Positions 12,201 through 55,062 of a stretch of DNA of 64,000 bases are shown piece after piece. Where the stretch lies: positions 18,652,357 through 18,716,356 of the forward strand of contig OZ316892.1 of NCBI GenBank assembly GCA_973895155.1, in the 5' to 3' direction. Both the position numbers and the translations under genes were made by a program. The notes under the pieces are model-generated. The model was not told the DNA's origin. It saw only the letters and a program-made list of their open reading frames with translations, and did not search any database. How positions within the stretch are numbered: the stretch's first letter is position 1; the number at the start of each line of letters is the position of its first letter. Source of the stretch: Marsupella aquatica. Taxonomy: Eukaryota; Plantae; Marchantiophyta.

Positions 12201-13651
12201 TTAATTTCGAGAGGACCATCTTATTGGAATGCCTCCTCGTGAATACAGAATAACGTCTAATCCATCTTCCAAGCCTTCAATGTCAGCAATAGCCACCCGG
12301 GCTGTGACTTGTTCCACCGCTCTCCATTCCATAGTTGACCTTGTGGACCTGTAGCTTGAGCCTCGAGAAGAATGTGTTTTGTTAACCCAACTGATGTGAA
12401 CATTGAGATCACTCAATTCTGGACAAGCCCTTGAAGGGACACCTGTTGCAAGAACCCTAGACTCTAAATTGCAAGTCATATCCTCCATGATTTCCACTCC
12501 GTTGCTACCTACACAGGTATGTGCCTCTCCATCCTCATCATCCAGGTCTACCAATGGCCCATCTTCTTCTGTAGATGAAATGTCCACCTGCCGAACAACA
12601 GTAAGCTTTAAACCTGAAGTGGATCGAACCTTCACGACGTCCTCTGTATGTGGATAGGTTGGGCAGATATGAAGAAAATTATCTTCTATATGATGATGAT
12701 CCATTCGATCAGAAAGTTCCAAGCACACTATCTCAGCTAAATTCCTTGCATTGGCACAGATACGTGGGACTGGCAAAAACTTGTGGAGCAATCGAGATAC
12801 TGGCCGGCAATTGTTGTCCTGGTAAGACTCAGGAGTTGCCAACAACACCAGCATCCCATAATGATTATCTGTCAATATCTTTGGTGGATTATCGTTGGTT
12901 CTCTGTATGCCAAACCAATTTCCTTCAAAAAATATATCCTGATAGCCCATGAACTCATGGAGGAAGAATTTATTAATTACTGCCCTCAAATTCCAACAAT
13001 AGCCTGCATCGTTCTCTTCATCAGTCAAGACTACTACATGGTCCCCTGTTCTGAAAAGTGTTCCCCTCACTACAACAGATTTTATTGGGGTTACTTTTCT
13101 TTCCATTGTCACTTTGTTGTAATCTGTCAACACACTGTGCTTAGCCCAATGCATCTCCAAAACATTTACTGTATCAACGGACATGCCCACTTTCTTCACT
13201 CGCTTAGAGACCATGCCAATGCCAATTCCTCTTTGCAAGATTGAAACTCTGCAGTATGAATTTTCAGGTGAGAAGCTCAGATTCTTCCAAATGTAAAGAG
13301 CCTTCACTTGCGAGGACACTACAACAATACATCTCTCATGCCACTGTGGACATGACAAGTCACGTTTATCTCTCACTGCATGCTCATCTTGGTGGGTTCC
13401 TGTAGGTCTCAGGTGAATGTGTGCTGTGACCAATGCACGTTGATGAGGAAGAAAGCCATCATCATCTTCCCAAGTTCGAATTGAGGTTTTGGTGAAAAAT
13501 AGCCTAGCATGATGACTGGTGTACGTCTGCTCCTTCTCTTTGTTGTTTGTGGTTGTCCTTCCATAGCCTGAGACCATTCGTTCAAACCTATAGCACCAAT
13601 AACCCCAATGCAGGCCATGACGTTCAATATCATCCAGAAGCTCCCCACTGC
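12201..13651 (-). pseudogene. CACTA-like transposase, last exon (catalytic Glu region plus C-terminal BAH/DUF4216-like region)
   Basis: IERHGLHWGYWCYRFERM motif; AG acceptor at 13652-13653. Confidence 0.8.
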
Positions 13652-13856
13652 CTACAAAGAACACAGAATGCTGCCAGTCAAGTATATATTTGAGCATGCC
13701 TTTATCAACCTGGACTGTGAGAAAAGACTTCAACTCACCACAATACTAATCTAATTAACCAAAATATTAAACTAAAAACAATAAATTGTGGGTACAGATT
13801 TTTGAACTAACAAATCTATATCAACAAACTTCCCAAAATTCAATCTGATAAGTACT

Positions 13857-14383
13857 TAGCATGAACCTGTTAGCGGATGTCGAAGTAGGTAACGATTACC
13901 ACAGTAGACCACTGTGCCTCCTGCTCCACGAGTAGATCTATTGGGATGCTTTCTCCAAGTCCCTTTCATGCAGCACCTCCTACAAGCATAATAGCCCTTA
14001 ACACACCATCCACCAAATTTACATTGGGCTGGATGATCCCCTGTGAATATGCACAATTGACATCTACATCTAAATGTACTAGTTCGGATCATGGGATGTA
14101 TTATCTCAGGTTGGTAGGAAAAAGTGCAAATGAACCCATCAACAAATAGCTTTTGGAGATCTCTAATTAGTGGCTCCAAGAAAGCATCTAAATTATTGAA
14201 CTTGCGTTTGGTCAATTTCTCTGTCTGACTGTGCGGTATAAACAATACAGGAATTGGCTGCATGTCAGATCTGATGCCCATATTTAGTATACTAATTTCC
14301 ACAGTCCAGGTGCTTCGGTAACTAGACCTAGCAGACTGAAATCCGTCCCAATGAGCCATCAATGCCAGATTTCGAGGATCCCC
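13857..14383 (-). pseudogene. CACTA-like transposase core exon (Tnp2/Transposase_21-like)
   Basis: GDPRNLALMAHWDGFQ, LDAFLEPLIRDLQKL, GDHPAQCK, GYYACRRC. Confidence 0.85.
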
Positions 14384-14543
14384 CTGGTCACATGCAACAG
14401 AAGAATATATCCAAGAAAATAAGAACAAGCATTGCAAAACCAGTGGTAAAAAACATGAATGTGTATATGGAAACCAACCGTGAAGCAAAAAATTAGCCAA
14501 CAAACATATATATGAGATCTTGATTATTTAACATGATTCCTAC

Positions 14544-14710
14544 CTGTGAATGCATTTGCTGTGTCTTGATATGGGCCCCGCATGCACAATCAAACTCATA
14601 GAAAATAATTCCATTGTCTACAACCGTTTTCTCCTTCAGCAGGTCACATTTTTGAGGATACGTCTGGTAGGCAATGTAACATGACCGGCATAGAACGGGA
14701 AGCTCAAATG
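14544..14710 (-). pseudogene. CACTA-like transposase exon segment downstream of the MULE insertion
   Basis: ELPVLCRSC...CACG...MHSQ then GT donor; continues WDPTQTF from 26831 in frame once the MULE is removed. Confidence 0.8.
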
Positions 14711-15418
14711 GGGGAATTTACAAACGATAGCAAACAGATAACAGTAACAGGAAACAGATTCTGGTACCAGTTAAAAGGAGCTGTTACCAGTGAACAGTGT
14801 TTGGATGGTCGTGAACAGTGATCTTAAAAAAAGGTCTCAAAATCTCCATTTGAAAGTACAAGAATAGAAAACAAAACCACCAAACCCTCGTGATAAATAA
14901 AAGAACAACACGGAAACAATTTTTTGAAACATAAAAGACGGCTGCCAATTGAGATACACAAAATCCAAGACAAATACAAGTAGAAAAGAAAGGCCGGAAA
15001 AAACATTCGCATATATTATCGCAAAATAGAAAACGCGCTCGGCTTAAGTGATACAAAATGCAGTTATCAACATCAACAATCTGGCCTAAAATCCCATCCA
15101 TGAAGTCACGGTCGACACCGTCGGAGGTTTTCGACTAATACATGAACAGCGCTCGGCGCTAGCCAAAAACTAACTAGAAAACTAGTCATTTCTTGGAGAC
15201 AAGATGCGTCCAAACCCAGACAACATAGTCAAGATCCATTCCCTCCCACAAAATCCATTGTCATTTCAATAGCGCCCGACGCTAGCCAAAACCTAAATAG
15301 TAGACAACCAGGAAAACCCTAACGCCAGAGCTGAGGTCGACTTCAATGCCACAAAATCCAGAAAACTTTAGCAGCGCCCGGCGCTAGCTTAAAGCGATCA
15401 GCAAAACAAAATTTCCAT

Positions 15419-15880
15419 CTAGCTTTCCGAGTTGCAATCATCATCCACTCCTGCTGCTTCTCTCCGCCGATCTTTCTTGAAGCCGAGACCACGCAAACGA
15501 ACGTATCCCTCTCACGGTCCTCGATGAACAGCCTTTGTAAAATGTTCATTAGGAATATTACTGTCCTTAAAATCAACTCGCCCGAACATTTCTTGTACTC
15601 TTCGATCGATTGGGAGTACCCCATCAACAAGAACTCCCGGGTGAGACGAAAACTGACTAGAGAACGGAGGCGCAGGGGAATCGACAATCCAAGGGATGTT
15701 CTTCTCTCCAGGACTAATAGCCTCATCATACGGGAGAGCATGACGGTTCCGAAAAGTGGAAGTTTCAGTTTCTTCAGTCTCCATCCACGATTCAAAAGAG
15801 CTGAAATGGCTCTCTTCCGGACGCACACGAGAAGGACAAAAAGCTGCCTCCCAATCCATTGGCTCATACTGACTCGCCAT
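15419..15880 (-). pseudogene. Small MULE accessory ORF of unknown function (one internal TGA)
   Basis: MASQYEPMDWEAAF...VHRGP*EGYVRLRGLGFKK...NSES*; the TGA is explicable as CGA>TGA. Confidence 0.45.
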
Positions 15881-16014
15881 GTTTCAAAGATCCCGATCTA
15901 ATATGTAACCTCTCCTCCCGTAAGAACGTTGTCCGCGAGTGCTATAGCCGACAAAGGTCAAAGAAAGGTCCACGAAGACTAAGATGCCAGATAAAGGTCC
16001 GCGTACACTACCGT

Positions 16015-16380
16015 TCCGAAACGACCATCAAACTATCATCGTCCCATTCTATTGCCTCCCGAAACTATCTTCGCCTTGGTAACAGGTATCGTCCCATTCT
16101 ATCGCCCTGCTCTAACGTCCCGTTCTATCGTCTTCCCGAAACAAAGTCTTCCCAAATGAACTATCATCCCGTTCTATCGTCATCCCGAAACAAAGTCTCC
16201 CCTCCCATTCTATTGTCCCGTTCTATCATCCCGTTCTATCATCCTCCCGAAACTATCATCGTCCTCAACTATCGACGTCCCCAACTCTCGTTGTCCTGAA
16301 CAAACCTAAACTGAAACTATAGTCGTCCCTTCCACCCGGTCCCTAAACTATGGAATCATCGTCCCGAAACTATGGTCCCC
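16015..16380. repeat. Degenerate short-motif array (CTATCRTC / CCCGAAAC / CCCRTTCTAT)
   Basis: More than 10 interleaved copies visible upstream of the small ORF. Confidence 0.7.
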
Positions 16381-16694
16381 AACGGTTTTTCGACGACTGA
16401 CTAAAGAACACAATCCAAATGGCAGGTGGTATCCAATAACGATGACCGTTGACAAGAAACAACAAAGACTAAACGGCCATTTAGAGATTCCATTTGGCGA
16501 GCGCCAGGCGCTTGTAAAGAACAGAAGTCAAAAGTAATCAACAAGTAGAGAGAAATCAACAATTTAAAAGGACCCTCAACAGAGGGAAATAATACAGATG
16601 TTACAAGCACCGGGCGCTGCTAAAAGATTTAGCCTCAAATACCCACTACTTCTCACGGTTCCGAAGATTCTAAGTCGGAACCAAAATCTGTACT

Positions 16695-19600
16695 CTAGGA
16701 TCTGTCCGTGGACACAGCCTCATCATCTACGTACTGGCTGCGGGAGAAGTCATCAACATAAGGATGTTTAATGAACTTTCGGTCAACACCCCTTCGTAAC
16801 CGAAGACCTTTGTTTTCCCAGCAAAGTGTCCTTGCACTTTCTGCTTTCCTTGCGGCTTTCTCTGCATAGGAGGGAAGAACAAACGGTTTTTCCGGTGTTT
16901 CTACGTTGTTTCTCGCGATCTTCCTCCGTAGTTTGAATCGTCTCCTTGCATTCCACTCTGACCTGATATAACAAAGTCCATTTTGTAAGGCGCCTTTCCC
17001 CAAAACAACAAAAGAAATGTTTTGAATTGACGGGAATGGAGAAAGAAGCTTACGAGTTTATGAACATGACTCGGAAGAGTCATCACTATCGGTTTCATCT
17101 GCAGCTGCACGACGCTCTCCCTTTTCCTCCTTGGAGTTTCTTGTACCTTGTTCCTCTCCACCTTCACTCGATTCATCATCAGAATCAAAATTGAGAACCG
17201 ACCGAAGCTTATCTCTCTTTTTTTGTTGGCAGTAGGAATAGGTGGAGGTAATACTGCAATCTCTTTGGGAGACAACAAATCCATGAAAACCTTTGAAGCG
17301 GTTTCAATAAATTCTTTCCGGTGTTCTATCCCAAGTACAAATCATCCAGAGAAGTCGCCAGCAATGTAAGAGCCTCCAGCCCCAGCAGTCCAATCCATAA
17401 AAATATCACGAGGCCGTGTGACAAGCTCTATAACAGATTGCATAAAACCCACAGACAGACGAGCATTTCCAGCAAACTCCATTTGCGGGAATGGATCTGA
17501 TTTGAGCGAAGAGAGTCCGATCAAATTGGTAACCGAAGGGTCCTCATTGATGGACAGCGGCCAAAATTTGGGGTCTTTGGGAATTTTACATTTCCCATTA
17601 ATTCGGCCAAATATGTCGAGCCTGAGGGTAAACATCTCTCGGTCTGTCTTTGCCGCATACATTGGGTAAGACATCACAACATTATGCGAGCATATACACT
17701 GAAATTTCCTTGACTCCTGACATGTAGCAATGACTTGCGACATGGGATCGTACTCCCCATTGTGTAGAATTACAAGGAACCCATCATCTGATAAAAATGG
17801 ATCCATGGATTTGAAAAAAGATCTAGCCATTGAGTGATCTGGAATGTTCCATTTAGGAACCTTCTTATCAATGATAGATGGTTTGAACCCGGTCGGTAGG
17901 TAAATGAAGCCGGCATCCACTCCAAACGATCTTACTTTTCCCCCCTGAACAACTCCCTTCTCTTTAAATCCCAACTTAACGAGGTCTTTTCCCCATTTTT
18001 CCACATCACTAACCCACTTGGGCTTCTCCTCCTTGTTGAACGTCGAGTCAAAAAATTCAGAAAGGCTTGTCTCAACCATGCAATGGCGAGACACAGTTGT
18101 TTTGAAGTTTCCAACTTCACGTTGGAAACCAGAAGCTATAACACTCTCCCTTAAAGATTGTCCACCTTTGATAGCTCTCTTTCGTTTCTTCCTGGTACTC
18201 GTGGCGTCGATAGGAACTATAACCTTCCCTTTGTCGACTGGAGTAATGGGGTCCGATCGAGCTCCCGTGTTTGCCTCAGAAACTTCAGGTGTAGCATCCT
18301 TTTTCGTGTTCCCACCGTATTAGACTTCCTCCCTCCTAAAATATAACCAGGTCGTAGTTAGAATAAGTACTTTTAAAGTATTGAAAGAAGCTAGCGCCAG
18401 GCGCTAACCAAATGCAATTCACTTAAGTCGCAACCGAAGCCTAATAACCAAGAAAGAGAATACCCTCAATAGAATATTTTTTGCCAGCGCCTGGGGCTGG
18501 CAAAATCATGGATAGCAATACTTACTCTTCTTTCCAGATTTAGTAGACTCGCTCGGTGCTGCTAGCTCCCCCAGCCTTTGTAAACTAAAGAGGTATACGT
18601 GCGTACACCCCCCTCCTTAGTACCCCTTATTATTTTTGGAAGCCTATAAAAATTTCTCTTGTTATTCTTAAAAACTTAATTTTGGAGAATAAATCTGCCC
18701 CTTTGAGATATTATAATTTCACATTTTACACCATTTATGAAAGCCTTGAAAAGTTATAAATTCATCATTTGCACACGGTTCTAAAACTGACGGGAGTGTT
18801 TTGGAAGGGTTTTGGGTACATACATTTTTGTGTTCGTGACCCTTTAACCCCAAACTTCAACTTTGGGGCATTTTTGAACCACACGGTAGGGTAGTCAGGG
18901 TTCAAAAGCTCCAAAGTCCTAAACTACTCTGAATCATAGATATTGCAAGCATAATTATATGTCATATACACATGTTCCAATAAAGGGTGGCCACAAGGAC
19001 CAATCCTATTGTGACGCGTGTCACATCCATATTACATCACCTCTTGAAGCATATTAACTTGGGCAACATTTATATAAGCCTATATTAGTTAGAAAGGGTT
19101 CTTTGAATAAAACCATCCCTTGATATTTCTAAGCCAATTATAAAAATTAATCTCAAATCAGATTTTTTGCACCCTTCATCCGTTCGCACGTCCAACCCAT
19201 TATTAATAATGCTGGGGGCCCAGGGGCTAGCTCCGCTTTGGCTTTCGCGCGAAGTTTGCGACTCCGATCCACATGCACAACAGTTGTTTCACAGATAGTT
19301 TGCAAGTTTGTGGCAGACTTGTCTACATCGTCAAGTAGACCCTGCTTCATGTCGGACACAAGTTTTGCTGGCATCTGAGACTTTGAAAGCTTATGGAAGG
19401 CATCTTTTTCCCTTTCATCAAAAGGAGAATCCCATCTATCTGTATCTAGATACCAGGGGCAGTGAGTTCTCTCCCATTCTGTCATTGGTCTCGGAGGAAA
19501 TATGCCCTCCGTGGGGTACATAGAGTACAAATCAGCCAAGGCATCATCTTCACTTATTGAAATCCACTTCATAAAAGCTGCAGGATATGCCCAGAAGTAA

Positions 19601-21400
19601 TCAGGTTTGGTTGCCTCCATGTGCATGTAGAACCTATACACAAACCTCTTCGCTCGCTTCTGGTTTCTCTGGGTGTAATCTTCTTTGTCAGGGTACTTTG
19701 AAGGCCACATAGTGTGAAAGAACTTATTCTTCACGGAATCACCAAATCTCTTGAATTCATTTGTAACAAACTGAACTAGATCATCAAACGAACTACAATT
19801 CCACTCTTCCAATCTATTCGCGGGCATGGTTTGCTCAACTTCACGTAGACATGAATGTAACATGCCAGCAGCAATTCCCTCCACACTATTCCAAGTGATC
19901 CAAGTGTGGCACCACTGTTTGACTGGATCATCGTTAACACTTGCTGGGTGAAAAAACTGTCTCCGCAGCTCAAGATTGCAATGTGCCACAAGTAAAGTGC
20001 TTTGTAACTTTGGGTCTAGAGCAGAAACAGTGGTGAACAATCGTGCGCGGTCCATCGTACATACAACGGTGTCAGGCTTCTTCTCTCTCTTGTTTCTCTC
20101 TGTGACAGCATACATTTCTGCACATGTACTGAGGAAATCTTCAAATTCAGGACTTAATAAGGGTGTAATTTTTGAAGACTTCACTGCCCAATATTTGGTT
20201 GCGTCTTTCATCATGGCCGCATGCCGTTTTGAAATCTCGTCCGCCGACCATGGACTCCCTTGAGCCTCCGCTGCCTCCATGTCGAGTTTGAATTGATGCG
20301 AGTACGACTTTATCTTATTCTCACAAAGAATGTAAACAAGTGCTTCTTGTGGCATCTTCTTCGTATACCATGACCCCTTCCGAGTTTTCAGCCGAATGCT
20401 TTCAAACTTCTTGAAATTACCCGGGTCAATCAGTTTACTGTAATACTCAAGGTCATGCGCCAGAATTCGTTTGATTCTGTCCGCATCCAGGATCCAGGAA
20501 GGCTCTACAACTGCTTGGCCAAGCCTACACGAACAAACATTGAGAGTAAGAGTCAATGAAAAACAATTCATGTATAAGCAGCGCTGAGCGCTAGTAAATA
20601 CAGCACTCGCAAGATTTAAGGAAAGAACTGGAAATCATGAGAACTTACTGATTCACGGTGTGCATAGCTGCCTCAATTTCAATGAGAGATCCCTTGTCTC
20701 CTTTAAATATTGTACAGAGCACACGAGGATGATATTTTGGATTGTCCGGGTTCTCCTCTGTTACAAGCGTCCAGGAGTACAGCCTGTGATTTCCATCGAA
20801 TACAGAGAACATCTTATCCTTCAAGACGAGAAAATACGGGTCAGCCTCGCATTTAGCCTCAAACTTCTCATTCTCCAATTGCCATATTGGATCCCATGAA
20901 TCATGAATGTCCTGGGTACAGGTCAGAATAATTCCGTTCTCATCCGTTGGCTGCACATAGAAACGCATCCCTATCGAAGAGTTGTAACCCATACTACGAA
21001 AAGAGTCTTTCAGCTTCTCGATGGAAGAGCTGTCTTTCTATAGAGTACGAACCACCTCCATGTGAACCAATCGACACAGAGGGATTCGAGGCGGCTCCTT
21101 GTCAAATCCACGAGAATCCTTTCCAAAAGACATGACATGTTTCGAAATGAGATCAGTCTCAGCAAGCGCGCAATCCGCAACATCCTGGATCGCAATTGTG
21201 TCTACATTGTCCATCTTTCTTCGCAAAGGATTTGGACCCAAAACACCGCTGACAGAAGTGAGCGGCAACAACTTTGAGGAACGAGTTACACGATGTGTAT
21301 AGACTGAACCAGTAAATGAAGACTACGAAGATTCAGAATAAGCTCGCTCCTGGTCAGGAACCGCACTATACCCTCTAGAAGAAGAGGGGAATACCTCCAT
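16695..21400 (-). pseudogene. Multi-exon gene: ParB/Srx-like domain + helical middle region + beta-class N6A/N4C DNA methyltransferase-like domain
   Basis: Exon 1 21400-20649 (VRTL*...IEKLKDSF..MGY...VFDGNHRL). Intron 20648-20525 splices in frame. Exon 2 20524-18526 is interrupted by a MITE. Intron to 18336, then exon with VDAGFIYLPTG...FLSDDGFLVI...VIELVTRPRDIFMDWTAGAGGS...SG*FVLGIE. The exon 2/3 join needs one further lesion near 18300-18335. Confidence 0.75.
18569..19225. mobile_element. MITE copy 1 (TIR CCCTGGGCCCCCAGC, 8-bp TSD; left TIR missing its outer 8 bp)
   Basis: TSD GCTAGCTC at 18561-18568 and 19226-19233; near-identical inverted copy at 54148-54801. Confidence 0.92.
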
Positions 21401-22364
21401 CGTCTTCCTTCTAGAAGCGTACGAACTATCGTACAATGAAATTATGGAACTATAATCATCTCTGAACGTGTAATATATTCTAGTGGGAGGATGACATAAC
21501 CTAGAGGAAAGCCATTAGCTCTGATGTTTGGCGGTTTCCAACGTCTGTATACGAAAGGTTTAATTACCAAAATCAAACGGTAGAAGATGCGTAACACACA
21601 CGGAAGTCATAAGTTACCGTTGAATGTTACCGTTAAAGACATTTCCTAACATCATATCAATACTAGCGCCGGGCGCTAGCATTAATGATGACCATCAAGG
21701 TGAACAATTTAGAGTATGCTTATAATAGCGCCCGACGCTAGTATAAACTGGAAGAAATTTAGAGGTCTTTTTTGAAGGAGCTATGACATAAATTTTGGCC
21801 TTTCCACCCCCATATTTTATTAAAGTATCCTTCAATATATCGTTTACGGAGAAATATTTCTCAAATGTAATACTAGCGCCCGACGCTAGTATAAATGTTC
21901 ATTTATCATCCATAATCAATCAAAACCATCCTTTGAAGGCACCATTTATTCCCAATTACCACCTGGTATGTGGTCATAATGTTCATTTTCAGGGAATTTA
22001 TTCTATACTAGCGTCGGGCGCTAGTTTGGAATGTCAAGATTTCAGACACATTTTTAGTGGCGTATTTTAGTTAGCGCCAGGCGCTACTAAAATTTGACAA
22101 TACCTTGTCATATCTTATGGTCTGTTTAAGTAAGGTTGGTGATCTTTTTAGCAATATGTTCGTGTCTGACATCCGGACTTCTCGGGGAAAAAATGACAAA
22201 AATCATTTATGGTGCCAACGGATCCTCCATCGTCTATGTTTTATGTCGTATACAAACGGATCGGTTAACGTCAAATTCCCAGGTTCAATAGATATAAGCT
22301 GAACAATACCATGAACTTTTCTTCTTTCAAACGCTATAGCCCTCGGTTTTTGTTTTTGTTCACC

Positions 22365-25300
22365 ATGTCTCGGTCTATCGTTCTTTCTCGATTCGGTTAT
22401 GAAGATATTGTGACTATCCCCGTCCCCATGGAAGATACGTACAAGCAGGTCCGGGAGAGGTATCTTTGCGGGAGATTTGATTTGAAGATGAATGACATTG
22501 AGGCTATTGTTCGAGAGCTCGAATCCATTGATGATATCAAGGATGCTGCAACATTCAATGTCAATGACGGTGAACGGTTTTGGCATCTCTACGCAGGGAT
22601 CTCATACTCGGTTCGTTTAAAACAGCATGCAAGACTGTCCAGTTTCCCGCCGGTTCCATGTGATGTGGTTGAGATTTCTTCAAGTGAGGATGGAGATCGT
22701 ACTCTAAGTCCATCGTCAAAGAAGAAAAGCCTGCTCCCTGCTGCGTGAAAGCTGAGACTCCGGGAAGCTCTAAGCAGTTGGAGGTCGTGTACCGGCGCAG
22801 TGCGATGGATACGTTACTCAAATCAACTGGTCATAGTGAGTTGTCACGGTTCATATCAGCGGGTGATTTCAGGCATGAACAAGTGTCCTGTCTGCCAACT
22901 AAGTACAATGGTAACGTCGTGTTTGAGTTGCCGCCCATTGATAAGATGCTCTCTAAAGGCTCTAGGCTTAGGGACATGGATCGTGCCAAAGATTGTTACA
23001 TTTGGACATGCATATTTCCAATAACTGCAACTGTTCATCCTAAAAACCTTTGGCAGTTTAGGAAGGTTACCTGTACGGGATTCATTGAATGCAGGAACAA
23101 GTCCTGCGACTATTTCCAAAGGAAGAAGAAGGCAAATGGTAAGGCATGGCAGGGTACTCCAAAGCTCAGTGGTCAGTATGCTGTGGGATCTTTCATCGAA
23201 GAGGGAGGTGTTGTTTGTCATTACTGCGAACAGATTCCTTTTTGTGTGAAGTACTGCCCTGCCCGTTTGTTTTACATGTACCCCCAAGTATTACTTGATG
23301 CGGAAACATGTAGTCATATGTCTCGCCTAGCAATTCATATAGGTGAGCACAACCATCCAGGTAGAAAAACCTTCTGTAGGAGTGCGGAGAAGATAGCTGA
23401 GGATCTAATTAAAAAAAACATGAAGCCAATCCTCTGTCAAAACCGGCAGGGATCTTGAATTCTGCTACAGGGTCCTTAGTGAAATCTCTCTGCGAACATG
23501 TTGACGACATGGTCGATATCGAAGAAACTGAATATGGAAGTCTCTGATGGTCCTTTCCACTCCGTAGAAGTTTGCATCTCTTTGTCGGAGCGTTAGGATA
23601 GACCAAAAAGGTCGGGGTGAATTAGATTTTCTCTCGCAAATGCAGAGGAGAATTCATGTGTCGTTTCTCCAGAGGTATTTGCTTCCAGGTCAGGGATGTC
23701 AGAACGATAGGCCTCACATCTTTAAAATGACCGTGAAAGGTCACGGTTCCGGTGTGGATCTTTTGAGGCAGATGCAACCGGGTGGCAGACTCAAAGGAGC
23801 CTGGGTAAGTTTCGATGTGATGCAGCGTGTCACCACGGATTGGTTTACTTTCAGCGCACACGTCTACGACCACAATTTCCGTGCACTATGTACAATTTTC
23901 ACATGCGAGTTGAAAGGTGAAGACACTGAGTCCTTCGAAAAGGCATGGAGAGTGATGATTGAGGTTTGCAAAGAAAATGAACTTCAGGAGGTTGTCATCC
24001 AAGGATTTATGGCCGACAATGCACAAGCTGGATGGAATGCAGTGCGAAATGTTTTTTTTGGTGGACACCCGGACCCGGAGAGGGAGCGCTCTGATGCATT
24101 TCACTTTTATCAATCTTTTCATCGTCATTCCAAGGAAGGAGTACTGGAAGAATGTCAATCGGAGCATCGGAGACTTTGGGAGAAATTGAGAAATGCTCCA
24201 TCATTTGTGGCAGCATACCGGGTGTCCCGAGAGATTGTTGTGTGGTGGCAATCAGGAAATTGTGTCCCCGGAAAGCTGAAGATGCTGCAAAGTTGGATAT
24301 CTTGGTGGGTTGTTCGCTGGCGCCAGTGGGGCAATTTTATTCGAGTGGTAAGGCATCCATCTATCTAGACTGTAATGTTCATCAACTTCATATTAGCGCC
24401 AGGCGCTGGTTATTTTCTCCATACACGTCAAAACAAGTAGTACAAGAAATTGAAGCCAATATGTAGTTAGAATTCAGTATTAAACATTGAAATTGTATTT
24501 CAGGCCTGTTCTACATATTTATGTTGCCAGCGCCGGGCGCTGGTAATAGAATACTACTTACGGTTGACATTTTCGTATGGCAGAGCAAAAGCTCTGAGGA
24601 AGGTGCCTTGATCCCCAACTGTACAGGGTCAGAATCAAGGCATGCGTCCATGAAAGCCTCGGCTACAAAGAAAAAGGTCGGTCTTTATGAAGCTTGCGAA
24701 GTTGACCAAAACCGTGCTGTCTCAAGTTGCCGGATACAGTGCATACCGTAAAGGCTTGAACCGGGGGAAGGGGCCAACTATATGGGAATTGGCGTTCCGT
24801 TCCGCCGATCAAGCAGGTTCGCCAAGATTGTTTGAAGAAGCGACTAATATGCTTCTATCTAACGCAGCAGAATTTGATTTGGAAAGAAGTACTCCCCTGA
24901 ATGGAGATATAATGACGAAGTCAATGAAGAGGAAGGGACATGCAACTGGGACTGTCTCTCCACAAGATTCCCATCGGCATGACACCATTCTAATAACCAC
25001 ACCAAATACTCGTGGTTTGAAAAGGAAGAACCTGAACAGAACTGACTTTTCTTCTATTCCCTCAAGTTCTGATCATCCTGTCACAAAGGCGGTGAATCTC
25101 TCAGGTATGGTCACATCAGAGAGTGATACTGATTCACTGGACTATACTCCTCAAACAACCCAAACAACAAGATCCTCAAAACCTCCGCTCAGTGCCCCAG
25201 CAGCACTTCAGAATCAACTTCCACGCACGATTGTGCTAGAGAAGGATGTCCCTCCGGGGCAGTGGCAGTTGCGACGGACATCGAAGTATGGAGCAGGTCC

Positions 25301-26111
25301 GCAATGCAATGGTACACTGAATGGGAGTTCGGATCGCGATGAGTGTCAAAATCGTATCAAGAAGGTTGGCTTCCATTCGTCTGAAGGTGTTGTCGGAATT
25401 GTCGTGAAGGGCCATCGTCTCTTCAGGGGCGAACCCATCTCCGAAATGATTTGGTTTTGCCCGAACCAAGCGTGTTACAAGAGTCATCCGCGTCGTGGTG
25501 TTCAGAAGCTTCCTCCTTTTCCTGACATTTTGCCTGTTCTGAAGGGTACGAGCCTATCTCCTTCTGAAATTACATTCCTGGAAGAGCAAGGACTTGTCTT
25601 AGCGCGAACAACAGGATTGAGTCAATCTGCGCCATCTGCTTTTGACCTCAGGATAAATGTTAATGTGTTCCCAGAAACAATAAGGTTTTTGGAGCCGAAT
25701 CTCCGACTTGGTAGTCGAAATGGGAGGAACTCAAGGCCTCGGTCTAATCTCACTGTGGGTCACACAAAGCGAATGGAGTCTGCACGACAAGAAGTGATGA
25801 GTTTGGATGGGGAATGGAATGTTCAGACCGGAAATGCTTTTGGAAAGCAATTTCGAATTCGAACCCATGAGAACCATCGATCACCAAGCACATACTTCGT
25901 CCAAATCTGTATCTTCCCCGCTTGCTCTTGTGAAGACTTCTTCCTCCGACATTCGCGTGGCAAGTCGTACATGCCTTGCAAACATCTATACTGGGTGTAC
26001 ATAAATGTTTTCAAACTTGAGATTGAGGAGTCGACTCTTTGTAGCCAACCTATTTTGACTTTAGGCGAAGTCAGGCTTGTGCTGGAGAGGCAGAACTTGA
26101 ATGGCTTATGA
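22365..26111 (+). pseudogene. MULE-type transposase: WRKY/GCM1-like Zn finger, DDE core, C-terminal SWIM finger
   Basis: CTGFIECRNKSC...CHYC...CPAR...HIGEHNHP; SFDVM...GFMADNAQAGWNAV...AFHFYQS; intron ~24348-24583; SESRHA; CSCEDF...PCKH. Several frameshifts and stops. Confidence 0.85.
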
Positions 26112-26823
26112 GAGAGATCGAAACTGCCCAATAGGTCGTCGTTCAATATAACGGTTATTCCCTATTTTGTCTTTTTCCAACAGATATTTTAGTTGTTTTA
26201 TTGAGACTTTGTTGGTTAGCGCCGGGCGCTGGTTCTAGGAAACTGGATATTCATTGCTTCATTATGTACGTGCATTGTGGAAGAATGACCTCTTGTTTTA
26301 TTTAAAATGTGTAAGTTGATTAAATTGTCTACTGTCTTCAAAGCCTCGAGGATGTGATTTGTCATTTGTTTGTGACGTTACAAGGTCCATTTAATCAACT
26401 CCTTTAGATTGGGTTGATTTGGACTCCACGATTGAATGTGCTATGGTGGGTCCCACTCTAAGGGTCACTATTTGGTGATGAAAATAGATTGATTTGCATG
26501 AATGTTTCTTTAGGCACACCCCTAATACCATGTTTTTTATCTTCTACAATAAATTGTTGTGTCAATGGAGGATTGATAGTACACTTCATCCATCGGATGG
26601 CACAAAATAATTGTTTGTTTTAAACTTTATTACCCCCCGAAAAATTATGTCATTAGAGTGGTGGATATGCACCTTAGAGTGGTGGATATGCACGTTATGG
26701 TTCAGGCAAAACTGGTAACAGGGACAAGCTTACTGGTAACAGGTACAATTTCCCTGTTAACAGAAAATAAACCCCTGGTAACAGGTTTTCTGTTTTCTGT
26801 TTTCTGTCATGGCTATCATACCC

Positions 26824-27355: not shown

Positions 27356-28307
27356 GAGTCATCTTGCATGTGCAAGTCCTATAAAAAACCGGCCCTTACC
27401 TGCCCACGAACATAGGGAAAAAGTAGGTGACCAAATCAAACCAGAATCTTCCAAATCAATACGTGCAATGCTCCCACTCGGTAGCATGTCCTTCTCTGTC
27501 ATTTCCACTCTGTCGTTTCCACCCTTGAGAATATAGGCCGGTATGCGGGAGCTCCTGCAGCAAACGATGTCCCTGTAAAATGTCACAGGTCCCTCTATAA
27601 CCCGGATTACATGCGACAATGCTCGCTTCTCATTTCTACTTCTTCAAACTCCCGTATTACCATGCACAGTGCTCACTTCTCTTGTTCCCGGCCTGCAGCG
27701 AACTTCTGCAACCTCCGAACTCCAGCTCATTTAACACACATAGTGCCCAAGGACTCCAACAGAGTGACGGCTTGCCACTACGTTTGTTGTCTCCGCCAAT
27801 GCTGGGACTGTGCTTACGATTTCATCCACATTGCTCGCTCTTGGCACGACATTGCAATTGTGATCTTCATTTATTAGAATTCTTGGTACATATGATGAAC
27901 TCATTCACTGCTTTTCAATGTGCGAAGAAACCGAAGCCCCAATGTGTAAAGAATATCGAACCCACAATGTGCCTGATAGATTAATTTTTACTTTCATTCT
28001 TTGTGGAGGCCTTTTCCGGTCAAACTATTCAGCTGGTGCCCGAGATTGCGCAATGGTGCTTTCAAACGAGGAATTGGAAATAATATTGTCCACAATTCTT
28101 GTTTTGCAGCAATTGTTCTTGTTGCAACTACAATTGTACACTCTTCTTGCCAATAATTTGATACCACAAAGATGTGACAATGGTTCACATTTTGCTAACT
28201 TGCTTTGACTCTTTCAGATTATTCAGCATGCGTTTTGCAGAGATTATCATCATATTTCGGGGAATTACATTGAGCCAAGGTCAAGAGAGTGGAGTGGCTG
28301 GTATCTC

Positions 28308-29393
28308 ATGCATGTCATTGAGCAGGATCCTGTTCGCTTCAAGTATTTGTTTCGGGTGTCACCGGCAACGTTCATGTACATTTGTGACCTGGTTAGAGAA
28401 GACATGACAACAAATCCCCCGCCTGGCCTCCGCAATTTGACAAACAGGACATTGTCTGTTGAGCGCCAGGTTGCCATAGCCCTTCGTCGGTTTTCCAGTG
28501 GTTGCTTGTTGTTGACACTTTCAGAGATGTTTGGAGTTTCTGTCCCATGCATATCGGAAGTCATTTGGCAATTTGTGAAGGCTATAATTGTGCGAGCAAG
28601 GGGGAGACATTTGAGTTGGCCACAAGGAGAGGCCATGGCAATGGTGAAAGAAGAATTCCGCCAACTGCAAGGATTCCCAAATTGTTGTGGTGCAATTGAT
28701 GGGACTCATTTTCAAGTGGAGTTACCTCCTGGAATGAATTCCATTGATTATCGTGACTATAAGCATGGTCAGAGCATTTCCATGCAAGGTATTTGTGATA
28801 GTCGCCTTTGTTTTTTGGATGTCTTTGCAGGATGGCCTGGCAGCATTCAAGACTCACGACTTCTAAAAGTATCTGGATTTTGCAACGATGTTTTGGTACA
28901 CCATACAAAACTCTCAGGTCCAACATTTACATCACCAACAGGATTTCGTACAGGGGAGTATGTTATTGGCGATGCTGGCTACCCTGCTTATCCGTGGTTG
29001 ATAAATCCTTTTCCTTCTGCAATGGAGCATAGCCGGGAGAAGGAATTTAACTACATGTTGAGCTCAACCAGGATGTGCGTGGAGCATGCTTTTGGTCAGT
29101 TAAAGAATAGTTGGAGATTTATTTCACACAAAATATATCGGCCAGCTCCTTATCGACTACCGCATTACATTACTTGTGCGTGCATTCTTCACAACATCCG
29201 TATTGACCGTGGAGATGCTTATGACCCAGCTTGGGGGATAGACCCAGACCCCCCTTATGAACCCGGAGGTCCCCCTGCTGCACATCAAACTTACAATAAT
29301 GGACGTAGATATCGTATTGCAATGATGAACCATTTGCTCCCTCAGAGAGAGTGGGAACAGGAACAACAAAGACGTCGTGCTGCCCCTTACTAG
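28308..29393 (+). CDS. Harbinger transposase (HARBI1-like DDE_Tnp_4 nuclease); true start probably near 28053 via a short intron
   Basis: FRVSPATF, GAIDGTH, GWPGSIQDS, IGDAGYP, RMCVEHAFGQLKNSWR, CACILHN; uninterrupted 361 aa. Confidence 0.93.
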   Translation: MHVIEQDPVRFKYLFRVSPATFMYICDLVREDMTTNPPPGLRNLTNRTLSVERQVAIALRRFSSGCLLLTLSEMFGVSVPCISEVIWQFVKAIIVRARGRHLSWPQGEAMAMVKEEFRQLQGFPNCCGAIDGTHFQVELPPGMNSIDYRDYKHGQSISMQGICDSRLCFLDVFAGWPGSIQDSRLLKVSGFCNDVLVHHTKLSGPTFTSPTGFRTGEYVIGDAGYPAYPWLINPFPSAMEHSREKEFNYMLSSTRMCVEHAFGQLKNSWRFISHKIYRPAPYRLPHYITCACILHNIRIDRGDAYDPAWGIDPDPPYEPGGPPAAHQTYNNGRRYRIAMMNHLLPQREWEQEQQRRRAAPY

Positions 29394-29579: not shown

Positions 29580-30742
29580 CTATTGTGTAGGTTGTGAAGA
29601 ACTAGCAAGCTTCTCCATAAGGACGTCAGTCAAACGTGTCATCTGCTCGGTTGCTGCAGTTAAAACCCTCTCTTGTCGTTCTCGAACTTCACACTCACGT
29701 TCTCGAATTTCACTATCATGCTTGGCCGTAGATGCCATCTTCGCACAACTGTTGGCCATGGTTTTCAAATGGCCTTGTTTGTCACTACTAGACTTGAAGG
29801 CCTTTCGCTTCACACCTCTCTTACTCGGGCCAGAAAACTCCTGAGGAGATGATGGTTCTCTCACTCCACCAATATGCTCAGTGTTCTGTTCCGCACTCTC
29901 TTGTGTTGGTTGTGAGCAGTGATTTTGGCTCATAGGTACAGACCTATGTTCATCAACCTCAACATCATCACCTGCAAATAAAAGAAATAGAAAAGTAAAG
30001 AAAATGAGACAAAAAATATTAGTGGGCATGAAAATGTGTGATACATACAAACAAACTACTTGCACAATAGAAATCAATTAAAAAACAAAAACCCACTTGC
30101 ACTTGATAGTACAATATTGAGATAAGAACTTGTAAGTAACTTCTTACTTTCTGATGACAAGATGAACGGATCTGGCCTTGGGTTCCGGTCCATAGTAGAA
30201 ATGTCAGATAAAAACCTTGTAGGTGGAGTAACACGAGGAATACGTGCATACCACTCTAGCAATTCCTCATACAGGTCAACAGAGAAATTAGTGGGGAATT
30301 GATCATTGTGTCGCTGTTTGTCATCCATGTCAAAGTAAGAAATCTGCCCGGTTTTCTCCTTCTTCTCATAATCATAAATCAATTTGAACTTGCTCTCAAT
30401 GATCTGCCACTTCTTCTTACAAGAGTTTGGATCTCGAATAGGATTAGTAAATCCCTCATCCACCATAAACTTTGCCACAGCTTTCCATTTCAACTTGCTG
30501 CTGGTCATCTTCTTCTGTGTTGAGCCTTCCATAACAACATTGTGATATTCATTCCACTTTGCTGCAATGAGAACCTTCATCTCCTTGTTGGTCCAATCTG
30601 GCAACTTACTCTTTCCTTGAGGCCGTGGTGCATCAGTGGGACAGGCTGTAGCTACATTGTTGAGATCCAAGTCACGCAACGGCTCACATTGTCGTGAGGA
30701 TGCACTATGGCCTGCAACGCCACTCAGGTTCTAGCTCATCAT
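29580..30742 (-). pseudogene. Harbinger Myb/SANT-like (trihelix) DNA-binding protein, 2+ exons
   Basis: WTNKEMKVLI...KWKAVAKFM...RDPNSCKKKWQ; intron ~30145-29973; coiled-coil C-terminus; one early TAG near 30731-30733. Confidence 0.85.
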
Positions 30743-46400: not shown

Positions 46401-46818
46401 TGCAGCGCCCCTCCCAGCCCTAGCACTGCTGCTGTTACAAGCCCCTGTGCTACGAGCCCCTGTGTTACCACTAGTGGAAAATAGTGTCCTTAATGACTAG
46501 AACGAGGACTGACAAACAAGTCATATGTACCAATATACGACTAGAGCTTTTCTGTCATACCTGCCTCGTCTTTTAGGACAGTCAATTAAGACAAATGACT
46601 AAAACTCTCACCAGTCATTTATGGTAGTCCTAAATGACACAATATTTCTGAAATGACATGTTGTCCTAAATGACTGAATGAACGGCCGTCAGTCATTTAG
46701 GCATGTCTTTAATGACACATATTTAAACAAATCATATTACAACATGTGGCAACTACGCACGGTTGTCATTATATGTCATTTCAGACATGTCATAAATGAC
46801 ACAATAATAAATCATTTA

Positions 46819-47158
46819 AGGTGTCATTTAGTGTGTCATTGAAGGTGTCGTACATGGTGTCATTAAAAATGTCATATAAGGTGTCATACAAGGTGTCATT
46901 GAGGGTGTCATATAGGGTGTCATTGAGGGTGTCATACAAGGTGTCATTGAGGGTGTCAATAGGGTGTCATTGAGGGTGTCATACATGGTGTCATTGAGGG
47001 TGTCATATATGGTGTCATTGAAGGTGTCATACATGGTGTCATTGAAGGTGTCATACATGGTGTCATATAGGGTGTCATTGAGGGTGTCATTAAGGGTGTC
47101 ATACAGGGTGTCATACAGGGTGTCATTGAGGATGTCATTGAGGGTGTCATACAAGGTG
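46819..47158. repeat. 12-bp subterminal tandem array (GGTGTCATTGAG / GGTGTCATACAA variants)
   Basis: About 28 consecutive 12-mers with the invariant core GTGTCAT. Confidence 0.95.
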
Positions 47159-47268
47159 CTTTTAAGTAATGTCATTTGGGATGTATCTAAGAAGAGCTCA
47201 TAGTTATATTCAAAATCACATACAATGAATCCACTTAAAACTCTAAACAAATACATCACTTTGCGCAT

Positions 47269-47518: not shown

Positions 47519-50310
47519 TCAACACTTCCGAAGAAACCTAGCATTCCACAATGTATTCATTCCTAACACATTCCGTAAGCAGAGTTGTTTCTCTTCTTTG
47601 TTGGGCATTGGCAATGCTGCATCACCACAATACACTGCCTTAACTGATACTCGCACCCAAGGACTCTCAATCATGACACAATGAAATTTATCCTCTCCTG
47701 GTAACCCTGTCACTTCACCTCTAGCAACAACTGTAGAGCGATCCACAACGCTTCGTACTTCTACAGCATCTCCTTTTGAAAACTGCCACACAAAATTGTT
47801 AGGATAAAATACTGTCTTGTAGTACTGATTTGGGCATATTATCAATTTAAGAACATAAGCCAACTGAAAACAAATTCACCTTTGCTGCTGGATTTGGGGA
47901 GAGAACTGGTCCTCGTTCACTAGGTGAGATAGTGATAGGGGTTGATTTCTTGAATCTCTTTGAAGGCCTAGGTGGCGTAGCCTCTTGTTCCTGAATTGCA
48001 TTTGACACTATCTGTTCATCTGTGACAGCAATCTCATCACTTTCACCATTACCAATGCTGCTTTGTACAACGCAAGGTTCCTACAGTGCTCCCAAATTTG
48101 CTTCTTCCATACTTGGCTTTGGCTTCTGCCTTGTTAAAGTATCTGATTTCTCTCGCTGTGATACAGGATTCTCCCCTGAAGAAGCTACCACAAAACCAAA
48201 CAATGAATGCTTAGAAAACTTCATTCTAAATTGAAAAATAAACTATTGCATATGTAATATGTTTAGAGTATAAGTTTGTATGTTCTTACCATCACCATCA
48301 CCTGAGAAAGTAAGAGAACGTTTCCTGCTACTACCTTTAGGCTCAACCACCACCTTAGTAGCAATTGCATTTGATAATTGCATATGAAACTGATTCTGTT
48401 GATTTTGTGCAATGAAAGAGGTCATCATAGATGTCAAATTGTCCACTTTGAACTCAAGCTTGGTTAAATTCTCCACAGACTGTTCAAGCTTGAGTAATCG
48501 AGTTGGTTCCTCAATTGTAGTTTCCCTGGACAGTGGAGTCTACATACACAAAGACACCATATAATGTCAATCATCAATGATAATTTGAACATCATGGATA
48601 ACTGATAATCAAAATTGAATATATACACAGGTTTTCATTACATACCGCTGATCCATGTGCAGATCCAATTCCAACAAAACTACTGCCTCGATGTTCACCA
48701 CTGCCCATAGATGGACTGATCTGCACTGGGGGGACTGGACTACTAGACACAAGTTTTGATATAACAGAGCTCGTCATTCCTTTTGCTTTCTGGAAACACA
48801 TAATCACATTCAAAGCAATTGAAATATTTAATTAGAACTCATCATGTCATTGTTTATTCCTATACTAGATAAACACTTCAATTCAAATGACAATCTAGAC
48901 CTGCAGTGAGATGGACCATCTGAAGATTCTTACCAATCTTTTTTCTGCTCCAGCAGCCCCTCCTCTTCCAAAATGCTCTTTGTTCACCACTTCTGCCCTC
49001 CTTGCTTTCATCACAGCACTCCTTGCAAGCAAAGCAGGACTATCAAAATGATCCACCAGTCGTGCCCATTTCAACGGGTCAACATATTGAGGTCCTGGTT
49101 TGGAGCGATCATGTTTACATACATCCTTCCAATAAGTATTTAGTTTGTGACGTTCTCTTTTCAATAATGTCCGACAGTGACTAATAAATTTCTTGTCAGA
49201 CACTGACTGCTTATCTGGATACTCCCAATCTGCCTCCATCAATTTCTGCACATCCGCAATTATGTTTGGATCTTGTTTGTTCCAATCAGGTTCTGATACA
49301 TCAAAAAGCCTCAAGACATTGGCACGTAGCTCCTCCATCCAATATGGTTTATTAGGATGAGAATCATCAATATCATTGTCATGAATCTGAAAAAAACACC
49401 ATAAATGATAGTCATCAACATTGGAAATGAAACAAACACCCAATTGCTTCTGAGTACACAAACTGTAGGCCACAAATGTGAAATGTGCAATGAAAATCTT
49501 ACCGTTATCAATTTTCCCTTCTTATTGTCAGCCCTTCTTGCACTACCGGTTCTCTGGAATTGTTTTTTGGCTTGCCTAGATTCCCTGCGTTGCTCAGTTG
49601 CAGTCTTTCTTCCCTCTACATACACAATGAGCATCCAATATTGATCATCCACTATTGCAAAATGAGGGACAAGAAATATTACAATATAATAGGAGGACGC
49701 TTCATTGAATTTGACTTACCTGAACCCTGACTGGATGTCACTACTGTAGAGTGTCCAGATTTCCCAATCGATGCTGATGGAACCACCACTATACACATGC
49801 AAACCACTGGAGTTATGAATCCAACATTCATATAGATCAACATTGAAAAATACATTGAAAATCTTTGAAATTACTTACATTCAAATAGCTGGCCAGTCAC
49901 AGGGTCTTTGTAACATTGCACCATGCCACTCATGGAAGGTCCAATCTTTGTAGGGGTTTCTTTTGCATCTGCCAAGCTCTTAGATGGAGGTTGCAGATGT
50001 TCCTGTCCAGATCAAGTTAAAACCAATGTTATTAAACAGAATCACTACCAATGTCTATAGTTTCCTCATAATGTTGGTGAAATGTAATAGGAATCTCACC
50101 TTGGATGAACTTTCTGGTTTCTCATCTTCACTGTACTCAGCATCAGTGTCATAATCTGATTCAGAGCCCTCATCACCAGACTCTGCCATACTCACTGAGG
50201 CAATTCTTGATAGTCTTGAGCTCTGTCTCCTCTGTGTGGTAACCTCACTTATAGGAGTTCGACGTGTACTTGTTTTCTTCTTGTGCCCTACGGTCTGTGT
50301 TGCACCCAGT
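47519..50310 (-). CDS. CACTA TnpA-like multi-exon gene (Transposase_24-like region and C-terminal Tnp1/DUF8039-like domain)
   Basis: KWARLVDHFDSP...HFGRGG and VARGEV...VRVSV..V...DAALPMP......LW; many short GT-AG introns. Integrity not verified. Confidence 0.75.
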
Positions 50311-50608
50311 CTACATCAAAGAATATCAATGAATGAATGACAAGTACCAAAAACCAACTCATATTGCTGATGAGTAATATTAACACATCTTTGCACATTC
50401 AAAACAACATGCAAGATTATACTCACATGAAATTGAAATTTTCTCCAAATATCTCCCTGAATTTTCTATTATTGTCTGCTACCTTCTTATTTCGTTCCTC
50501 CTCATATGGAGGTATTCGCTGCATTCACTGCTAGACCATGGCATGCCATGTTAGTATAATCCCACTCCCAACCAAATGAAACCGGACTGTACAGTATCTT
50601 CAAATCAT

Positions 50609-53600: not shown

Positions 53601-55062
53601 ATTAATTGTTTTGCAGCATATAGGTTTTTAGGGAGAGTGTGCTCTGTTGGCATTCCATGCTCAGTCAACAAAGACAGCATGGCATTCACTCCCGTGTTTG
53701 AGAACCTATTGTTGTGACAGATGTTTAAAAACAACAATATGAAGGAAACTACATCAGTCTTACTGCCTGGAAATAAGGGTCTCATGGCTTCTTCTAAAGA
53801 CCCTTGCAGAGGGACAGGATTTATAGGATGCCCTGCTGCAGGTGTGTCCTCAGCCCTGGTCTCAGCAGAGGGTGGACCTACCTCATTCTCATCATTTTGA
53901 AACATTGAATCTATATCAAAAGGAGGATCATTATCCACATATTCGTCAGACTCTTCAGAAGCTCTTGCCAATGTCTCCTGAAGTAAAACTCTGACCTGCT
54001 CTTCAACATCTATTGATGGCTGGCCTGAGTGGAATGCCTCTCGAGACATTCCTGCCCTTAGTGCCTCTGGACCAGAGTTACGAATGTAATTGGATCTCCA
54101 CTCCTCATCAGAAGAGTCTTCACCTTCTCCTACCCACACTCGACAGGCCCTGGGCCCCCAGCATTATTAATAATGGGCTGGACGTGCGAACGGATGAAGG
54201 GTGCAAAAAATCTGATTTGAGATTAATTTTTATAATTGGCTTAGAAATATCAAGGGATGGTTTTATTCAAAGAACCTTTTCTAACTAATATAGGCTTATA
54301 TAAATGTCACCCAAGTTAATATGCTTCAAGAGGTGATGTAATATGGATGTGACACGCGTCACAATAGGATTGGTCCTTGTGGTCACCCTTTATTGGAACA
54401 TGTGTATATGACATATAATTATGCTTGCAACATCTATGATTCAGAGTAGTTTAGGACTTTGGAGCTTTTGAACCCTGACTACCCTGCCATGTGGTTCAAA
54501 AATGAAGTTTGGGGTTAAAGGGTCACGAACACAAAAATGTATGTACCCAAAACCCTTCTAAAACACTCCCATCAGTTTTAGAACCGTTTGCACATGATAA
54601 ATTTATAACTTTTCAAGGCTTTCATAAATGGTGTAAAATGTGAAATTATAATATCTCAAAGGGGCAGATTTATTCTCCAAAATTAAGTTTTTAAGAATAA
54701 CAAGAGAAATTTTTATAGGCTTCCAAAAATAATAAGGGGTACTAGGGAGGGGGGTGTACGCACGTATACCTCTTTAGTTTACAAAGGCTGGGGGCCCAGG
54801 GTCGACAGGCAGGGTAGCGGCCATATTTAAGAAGATGTTGTCGACTGGTCTTTCGAGTAGTCTTAACAATCCCTTTGCATTCCATGCAAGAGCAATACAT
54901 TCTATGATCAACACTACCAGAGCAAGCTGTCTGTTCCCGAGCCCATAAGTTATCATCATGACGCTGTATTCGACGTGGATGGGAAAGAGGTAATCTTCTC
55001 AGGTTGTTTGCCTCTATTGTATGTGCAGTGTTATGTGACCCAGCCTGGCTAGAAGAAGCCAT
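50609..55062 (-). pseudogene. CACTA TnpD transposase (transposase-associated domain, Transposase_21, DUF4218, DUF4216)
   Basis: CSCMEC...H; LRYFPIIPRLKRLY; HPADSKAW; LDGVNPF; WTINDYPA; CLDPMHCEKN; LKSHDFH; RWMYPIERY. Frameshift ~53345, TAG at 52981, MITE insertion. Confidence 0.95.
54148..54801. mobile_element. MITE copy 2 (654 bp, perfect 15-bp TIR, 8-bp TSD)
   Basis: CCCTGGGCCCCCAGC...GCTGGGGGCCCAGGG; TSD TCGACAGG at 54140-54147 and 54802-54809; removal restores YPACRVWVG. Confidence 0.95.

Follow-up and report, generated by a model that had tools for sequence, protein, structure and literature searches.

The one detailed account of transposon proteins that recognise their own DNA comes from the VANDAL/VANC anti-silencing system of Arabidopsis. 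En/Spm and MuDR carry subterminal transposase-binding repeats that are confined to the element ends. In Arabidopsis, VANC21 is described as binding a 9-bp motif (YAGTATTAY) that is enriched in the Mutator-like element VANDAL21 and that lies in introns, intergenic DNA and terminal non-coding regions; binding and methylation loss have both been shown, and the number and spacing of motifs vary between copies (PMC5735166). The motif arrays of VANDAL elements are reported to turn over rapidly (PMC5735166; 10.1101/2022.12.19.521048). A newly noticed class of accessory protein has been described from algae. Opposite its transposase, the Ectocarpus element Sola1-1_Ec32 encodes a 1,104-residue protein with ParB and DNA-methylase parts, which the authors propose to bind and modify its own element (PMC12477816). 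Red-algal Plavaka elements are described as carrying a PF01555+SET protein and a ParB-like protein (PAG2/PAG3), with inverted-repeat arrays adjoining the ParB-like PAG3 gene, and PAG homologues are placed in Mutator elements of Chondrus (bioRxiv 10.1101/2025.02.11.637652). Here we describe a 64-kb stretch of the Marsupella aquatica genome (contig OZ316892.1; ‘the window’ below) in which sixteen copies of a 13-base palindrome, AGCGCCNGGCGCT, are spread through the non-coding DNA of a likely Mutator-like element with a transposase gene and a large accessory gene.

AGCGCCNGGCGCT is the most recurrent short palindrome of the window. It has eight exact matches, against none in any of 100 dinucleotide-preserving shuffles (mean and maximum both 0). 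At up to two mismatches there are 16 matches (shuffles: mean 0.54, largest 3), all within 15148-26230 and at exactly the sixteen positions of the original prediction; the other 53 kb of this transposon-rich window hold none. A limit of three mismatches gives 27 matches where 5.78 are expected. The 11 additional matches are weak and scattered, one lying inside 15148-26230 and ten outside, four of those ten in a satellite. Because these additions are weak and fall mostly outside the span, the 16 sites form a distinct set. The eight imperfect copies carry nine changed letters in total. Eight of the nine are C>T or G>A, which agrees with the earlier statement that almost all deviations are of this type, and the ninth is a C>G change at 18495. 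A literature search that combined half-site words with ‘palindrom’ and ‘transpos’ found no paper on the motif.

The motif-bearing stretch contains two divergent genes with ∼0.9 kb between them. The gene model combines open reading frames (ORFs), GT..AG boundaries, frame continuity and the indels seen in other copies of the family; the introns are predicted. The genes and sites are as follows.

15148..15385, unstranded: palindromes 15148, 15271 and 15373, set in diverged tandem units that lie downstream of a small ORF
16500..16618, unstranded: palindromes 16500 and 16606, which fall within the 3′ untranslated region predicted for the accessory gene
16695..21400, minus strand: accessory (‘cargo’) gene of ∼1,212 codons in four predicted exons, with a three-domain product
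18393..18498, unstranded: two palindromes within intron 2 of the accessory gene (predicted at 18336-18525)
20580..20592, unstranded: one palindrome with two mismatches, within intron 1 of the accessory gene (predicted at 20525-20648)
21665..22085, unstranded: five palindromes within the 0.9 kb that separates the divergent genes
22312..26111, plus strand: likely Mutator-like transposase gene with one predicted intron (24348-24583)
24395..24541, unstranded: two exact copies of the palindrome, within the predicted intron of the transposase gene
26218..26230, unstranded: one exact palindrome site, 107 nt past the transposase stop codon

All 16 sites lie in predicted non-coding DNA, which accounts for 2,846 of the 11,083 bases of the span (25.7%; P = 3.6e-10), and seven of the eight non-coding segments of the span hold at least one site. 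Under this gene model the sites are thus restricted to introns, untranslated regions and promoter, as had been predicted. The motif is real, is specific to one element within the window, and is kept out of predicted coding sequence. The description as ‘one element’ holds within the window, although the family as a whole is high-copy. Contigs from four public DNA runs were aligned to positions 14800-26600 of the window; two of the four runs yielded >1,200 and >2,200 contigs of the family at 80-100% likeness, and the family repeat runs past both ends of the compared stretch, beyond 14800 and 26600.

When the 32 half-sites are superimposed, the consensus is GGCGCT-R-G-Y-A-W-A-A, and information reaches position 13 from the centre. 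The palindrome is therefore a dyad of ∼27 bp, with two equivalent half-sites around one free central base. The original prediction had noted that many copies extend symmetrically. This extension exists as a common, longer half-site consensus, but not as pairing peculiar to each site: the two arms of a site have the same letter in 57 of 112 pairs, where randomly paired half-sites have a mean of 51.1, and the observed value was reached in 635 of 5000 permutations. There is thus no compensatory covariation. DNA hairpin energies, for the eight of the 16 sites that were folded, are uneven (-5.0 to -11.8 kcal/mol), with z of only -1.2 at 16500 and 26218. On these two results the hairpin hypothesis is rejected, and sequence recognition by a symmetric dimer is favoured over selection for a hairpin.

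The flanks of different sites are unrelated beyond ∼10 nt, sharing at most ∼10 nt in register with the exception of one tandem pair, and an alignment of ten sites has only the core and a few flank columns in common. The claim that the flanks are unrelated therefore holds for most sites, but not for 15148, 15271 and 15373, which sit in diverged tandem units of ∼100-120 nt. Within these three units, the block AGCGC.CG.CGCTAGC is invariant in 14 of its 16 columns, against 23 of the 122 other columns. By eye, a flanking direct repeat of 6-7 nt is present at one of the 16 sites, so there are no target-site duplications. With flanks shared over at most ∼10 nt there is also no common internal sequence, and the sites are not a miniature inverted-repeat transposable element, as had been stated. 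Excision footprints and an introner-type origin were considered as well; both are rejected, since the core stays constant within intron sequences that are otherwise unrelated.

In other copies of the family, the perfect motif is restored at four of the nine deviant letters, with C at 18495, C at 20585, G at 21883 and C at 22014. For some contigs the alignment to the window is limited to ∼31 nt at sites 21665 and 22073; inspection by eye shows the sequence next to site 22073 in those contigs to be homologous to the window and much diverged. In other contigs, palindromes are kept at changed spacing within intron and intergenic sequence that can no longer be aligned (joints 20526>21664 and 21890>22064).

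From sequence comparison, we give roughly even odds to the reading that the sixteen palindromes are recognition sites for a dimeric protein of the same transposon family, most probably the accessory protein. The original prediction had proposed selected binding sites for a dimeric element-encoded protein. This is partly supported: the dyad, the avoidance of coding sequence and the conservation between lineages speak for it, and decay in the dead window copy, described below, speaks against it. In outline, a putative dimer of the accessory protein would dock on the dyads in the non-coding DNA of its own element. Docking would bring a methylase-like domain over the whole element, or would otherwise alter its chromatin. 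By analogy with VANC on VANDAL elements, and with what has been proposed for the ParB-type accessory proteins of algal transposons, the outcome might be that the DNA of the element is marked or protected.

The locus resembles several described systems, and differs from each. As in the published account of VANDAL21, a Mutator-like element (here a likely one) combines an accessory gene with a short family motif in introns, intergenic DNA and terminal non-coding DNA, and here too motif number and spacing differ from copy to copy. The VANC motif is described as asymmetric, 9 bp long and arrayed in tandem in one orientation, whereas the motif here is a 13-27-bp dyad that is mostly dispersed in unrelated sequence. 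One-orientation tandem arraying is not seen; only the cluster at 15148-15385 lies in diverged tandem units. The accessory protein, which we liken to VANC by description, also differs from it in having a methylase-like domain. A closer parallel in protein architecture, again by description, may be the algal ParB-type accessory genes, each a large gene opposite the transposase that combines a ParB-like N-terminus with a PF01555-type domain. In contrast to the present case, the algal proteins occur in Sola and Plavaka (EnSpm) elements, with Chondrus Mutator elements added according to the preprint. The published passages on these proteins name no defined dispersed recognition motif; their supplements may say more.

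Two further comparisons concern the sites themselves. Bacterial ParB-parS systems likewise have several palindromic sites and recognition by a dimer that acts over many kilobases, the latter features being putative here. Multiple palindromic sites of ∼16 bp characterise parS; here a 13-bp core in a ∼27-bp dyad is present in 16 copies. The accessory protein gave no ParB_N or helix-turn-helix match, only weak DGQHR/DndB matches. The short repeated internal motifs, putatively bound by an element-encoded protein, also recall En/Spm and MuDR, but the sites here extend to internal introns and the central promoter.

The accessory gene is broken in the window by in-frame stops at 21323, 21038 and 17342 and by a 7-nt deletion at 18307, where other copies of the family have seven extra letters. 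In its predicted product of ∼1,200 residues, a DGNHR domain at the N-terminus is followed by a helical middle domain and, at the C-terminus, by a divergent domain that resembles PF01555. A 130-residue N-terminal piece found 179 relatives at E<=0.001 among 1.84 billion representatives, and DGNHR is exact in 89 of the 150 relatives listed. Of the listed relatives, fourteen match the middle domain as well (lowest E 2e-28). In one of them, P0040 (1,191 residues), the C-terminal domain is matched too (E 2.6e-9), and by eye the last predicted exon of the accessory gene corresponds to a C-terminal tail conserved in this full-length relative. Hence the three-part architecture is conserved. The gene, called ‘cargo’ in the original prediction, did not come from capture of a host gene; it belongs to a conserved accessory-protein family. 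A word-indexed protein search gave four relatives of the middle domain and one of the C-terminal part, none of them longer, and viral contigs, searched with the middle domain, yielded no relative.

The assignment of the C-terminal part draws on several comparisons. Its nearest protein Atlas clusters are all PF01555 (0.92). Pfam aligns it to the last 57 positions of PF01555 (164-220) at E 0.038, and a PHROG methyltransferase family covers the same stretch at E 0.12. In a tblastn search of phage genomes, all 15 rows listed fell on annotated methyltransferase genes. The methylase of Streptococcus phage 7201 is itself a PF01555 protein (E 3.8e-25), and BLASTP of residues 207-341 against it aligned the S-adenosylmethionine (AdoMet) loop region at a pairwise E of 2e-7, for a pair that came from a database search at E 0.4. 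The first four of these lines are weak but agree on a divergent PF01555-type DNA methylase, and all of the comparisons fall below curated cut-offs. The catalytic tetrapeptide of PF01555 N6/N4 methylases is (D/S)PP(Y/F). At the expected position we read by eye YLPT in the window and in P0013, and DMPS in P0040, so that the catalytic consensus is not seen at that position and conventional catalysis by the accessory protein is doubtful. Since YLPT or DMPS stands in place of DPPY, the methylase-like domain may instead be a DNA- or cofactor-binding module.

For the N-terminal domain, five of 48 relatives matched DGQHR (TIGR03187; best E 0.001) and two of 48 matched DndB, families that we take to belong to the ParB/sulfiredoxin superfamily. 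A tblastn search with the N-terminus matched RepB genes only at E 1-2. Pfam searches of 33 relatives found no family, with scattered unrelated matches in six (low-complexity or retrotransposon gag). A pairwise alignment had suggested a ParB link, which neither hhalign nor a profile search of Protein Data Bank (PDB) sequences upheld. The model of the middle domain is all-helical, with a mean predicted local distance difference test (pLDDT) score of 60.8 and a best VIA Z of 5.8. A single-sequence AlphaFold model of the C-terminal part was unusable (pLDDT 32.5), and PDB sequence searches with five single pieces of the element proteins returned nothing useful.

Taken at its fullest, the locus would belong to a Mutator-like family with an address system of its own, pairing a conserved ∼1,200-residue protein, part DGNHR ParB/DndB-like and part divergent N6/N4 methylase, with a ∼27-bp dyad throughout introns, untranslated regions and promoter. 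We put this forward only tentatively, and as somewhat improbable. If it were true, it would provide the first defined cis-site for the newly noticed class of transposon accessory proteins, and a second, independently evolved counterpart of the self-targeting VANC system. It could also show how bacterial DNA-modification modules have been re-used for self-recognition in eukaryotic genomes. In any event, the locus offers a concrete and strongly non-random candidate site beside a ParB/methylase-like accessory gene, and thereby makes the guess of self-binding testable.

A number of observations weigh against recognition by the accessory protein, beginning with the protein itself. Its PF01555 score of 14.4 bits is below the gathering cut-off of 26.7, and the E-values of the phage tblastn search, at only 0.2-8, are weak. 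The N-terminal piece of the window reached TIGR03187 at E 0.042, with a score of 13.6 against a cut-off of 58.85. Pfam gave no ParB_N (PF02195) match for the N-terminal domain, a profile of 48 relatives found no ParB among PDB sequences, and hhalign against RepB returned a probability of 0.24%. The model of the middle domain matched no DNA-binding fold, and Foldseek gave nothing at E<=0.001.

A further difficulty is that the transposase, with its Cys/His-rich N-terminal region, is an equally obvious candidate for the binder. The transposase ORFs comprise this N-terminal part (CRNKSC...HIGEHNH), a core and a C-terminal CxC...CxH SWIM-like finger (P0001, by eye). The protein Atlas clusters nearest to the core are MULE and ZSWIM RNaseH-like (PF10551, PF21056; 0.92-0.93); Pfam gave no match for the gene product at E<=10. 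From these features, the plus-strand gene is likely a Mutator-like transposase. It is dead in the window: letters that other copies have at 22743, 23410, 23530 and 24716 are missing, hence the frameshifts at these positions. The palindromes might then be sites for this transposase, used in autoregulation of the divergent promoter or in assembly of a transposition complex. Both the N-terminal region and the finger fit such a role, as do the five sites in the common promoter region and the four near the outer limits of the motif-bearing span, and FHY3/FAR1 proteins, which derive from transposases, bind a site that contains GCGC. As a rule, however, transposase sites gather at the ends of an element, and here sites occur in internal introns of both genes, while the family continues past both outermost sites. 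A search for terminal inverted repeats between 5-16.7 kb and 26.1-40 kb returned no inverted match apart from the palindrome itself. Zinc fingers of this kind, moreover, usually read short asymmetric sites as monomers. We regard transposase sites as an unlikely explanation, though one to be kept in view, and take the accessory protein, not the transposase, as the most likely binder.

Other difficulties lie in the history of the motif. In-frame stops and frameshifts mark the copy in the window as dead. A 521-nt stretch of its intergenic region has seven places that vary between copies; six of these read A or T in the window and G or C in the other copies, and three of the seven fall within the 65 motif bases. 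In the dead copy, the motif thus decays at least as fast as its surroundings, as is expected of CG-rich sequence without selection. Selection is visible between lineages only, not within the window copy. Accordingly, conservation of the motif relative to neighbouring bases, proposed earlier as a check, fails within the dead copy and is found in the tandem units and in diverged subfamilies, where the motif is better kept.

Sites 15271, 21727, 21875 and 22010 carry an identical asymmetric variant, and the three intergenic ones among them share stretches of 20-22 nt that are 100% identical or complementary, in both orientations. This shows copying of the unit, not selection alone. In related organism C (run X5), the sequence corresponding to 21655-21693 of the window is found as palindrome-only unitigs of 31-64 nt, with ∼10 nt of flank on each side. 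Their summed depth is ∼25,700, against 5-32 for neighbouring sequence, and one contig has two palindromes 11 nt apart. The palindrome unit seems to be hugely amplified in this organism, perhaps in dense arrays, an abundance not readily accounted for if each element simply had a few sites. The variant in both orientations and the amplification in organism C would both be accounted for if the palindromes were small cruciform or hairpin DNAs, self-propagating or spread by recombination, that serve no protein of the element. Most of the tested sites do fold as DNA hairpins, and avoidance of coding sequence would follow from mere tolerance. Such spread is at odds with the want of target-site duplications and of arm covariation, with the uneven hairpin strength, and with the lack of any unit in the remaining 53 kb of a transposon-rich window; we also know of no mechanism for moving units of 13-27 nt. 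We consider this account improbable.

Lastly, the sites might serve a host factor, as promoter or enhancer elements, as terminator or processing signals, or as targets of host silencing. Their placement in promoter, introns and 3′ regions and their richness in CG and CHG would suit such a role, and the C>T or G>A nature of eight of the nine deviations would be expected if the host methylates cytosines. A host site should also occur elsewhere, yet neither the other transposons nor the remainder of the window contain the motif. The observed/expected CpG ratio in the non-coding parts is ∼1.0, so that no strong long-term decay by methylation is visible. A host role therefore appears to be a poor prospect, and recognition by the accessory protein is the reading that we prefer.

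A scan of sequence collections for two motifs 80-110 nt apart returned 65 loci in metagenomes, which we attribute to chance or to unrelated sequence. G+C content is 55-78% at 64 of the 65 and 49.5% at the other, the seven that were inspected are tandem repeats, and none gave a tblastn match to 13 proteins (P0001-P0014; element ORFs and close relatives). The same scan gave 0 loci in viral contigs.

Three other features lie within or beside the two genes.

15512..15883, minus strand: small ORF of 122 residues that starts with ATG (P0014), between the accessory gene and the leftmost palindromes
16043..16240, plus strand: array of CCCGTTCTATC, a second short repeat, in seven copies (0-2 mismatches) that separate the 3′ end of the accessory gene from the small ORF
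18565..19229, unstranded: younger nested insertion of ∼660-665 nt, missing from other copies (joint 18560>19226, nine shared letters)

The small ORF may be a third gene of the element; BLASTP of P0014 against the 150 listed relatives of the accessory N-terminus gave no match. The CCCGTTCTATC array could represent further protein-binding repeats, or else lie in a subterminal position. One inverted copy of CCCGTTCTATC lies at 14689, and CCCGAAAC-type words occur alongside the array. The nested insertion sits in the second intron of the accessory gene, carries no motif and stands outside the motif system. On either side of it stands the 9-nt direct repeat GCTAGCTCC; a second, inverted copy at 54145-54794, 35 kb away, is 97-98% identical. 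These features suggest a young non-autonomous transposon that made a 9-bp target duplication.

The window as a whole is eukaryotic DNA crowded with transposons. Immediately to the left of the motif region, two ORFs occupy 12201-14527 on the minus strand, one of which matches Transposase_21 (Tnp2, E 1e-11); this CACTA-type gene could be a neighbour, a nested insertion or part of a larger composite element. A second CACTA-like element, with DUF4216 and DUF4218 ORFs, lies at 48895-54163 on the minus strand, and no repeat of >=40 nt (seed 14) links it to the Tnp2 ORFs at 12-14.5 kb. To the right of the motif region, a PIF/Harbinger DDE transposase ORF (DDE_Tnp_4, E 5e-31) stands beside an opposite-strand Myb/SANT-like ORF (28209-29393 and 30074-30730), the usual two-gene layout of Harbinger elements. 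An array with a 12-nt period, of ∼24 registers in two blocks, spans 46752-47221. A tandem satellite with a 407-nt period and at least nine copies occupies 60541-63997 and reaches the window end.

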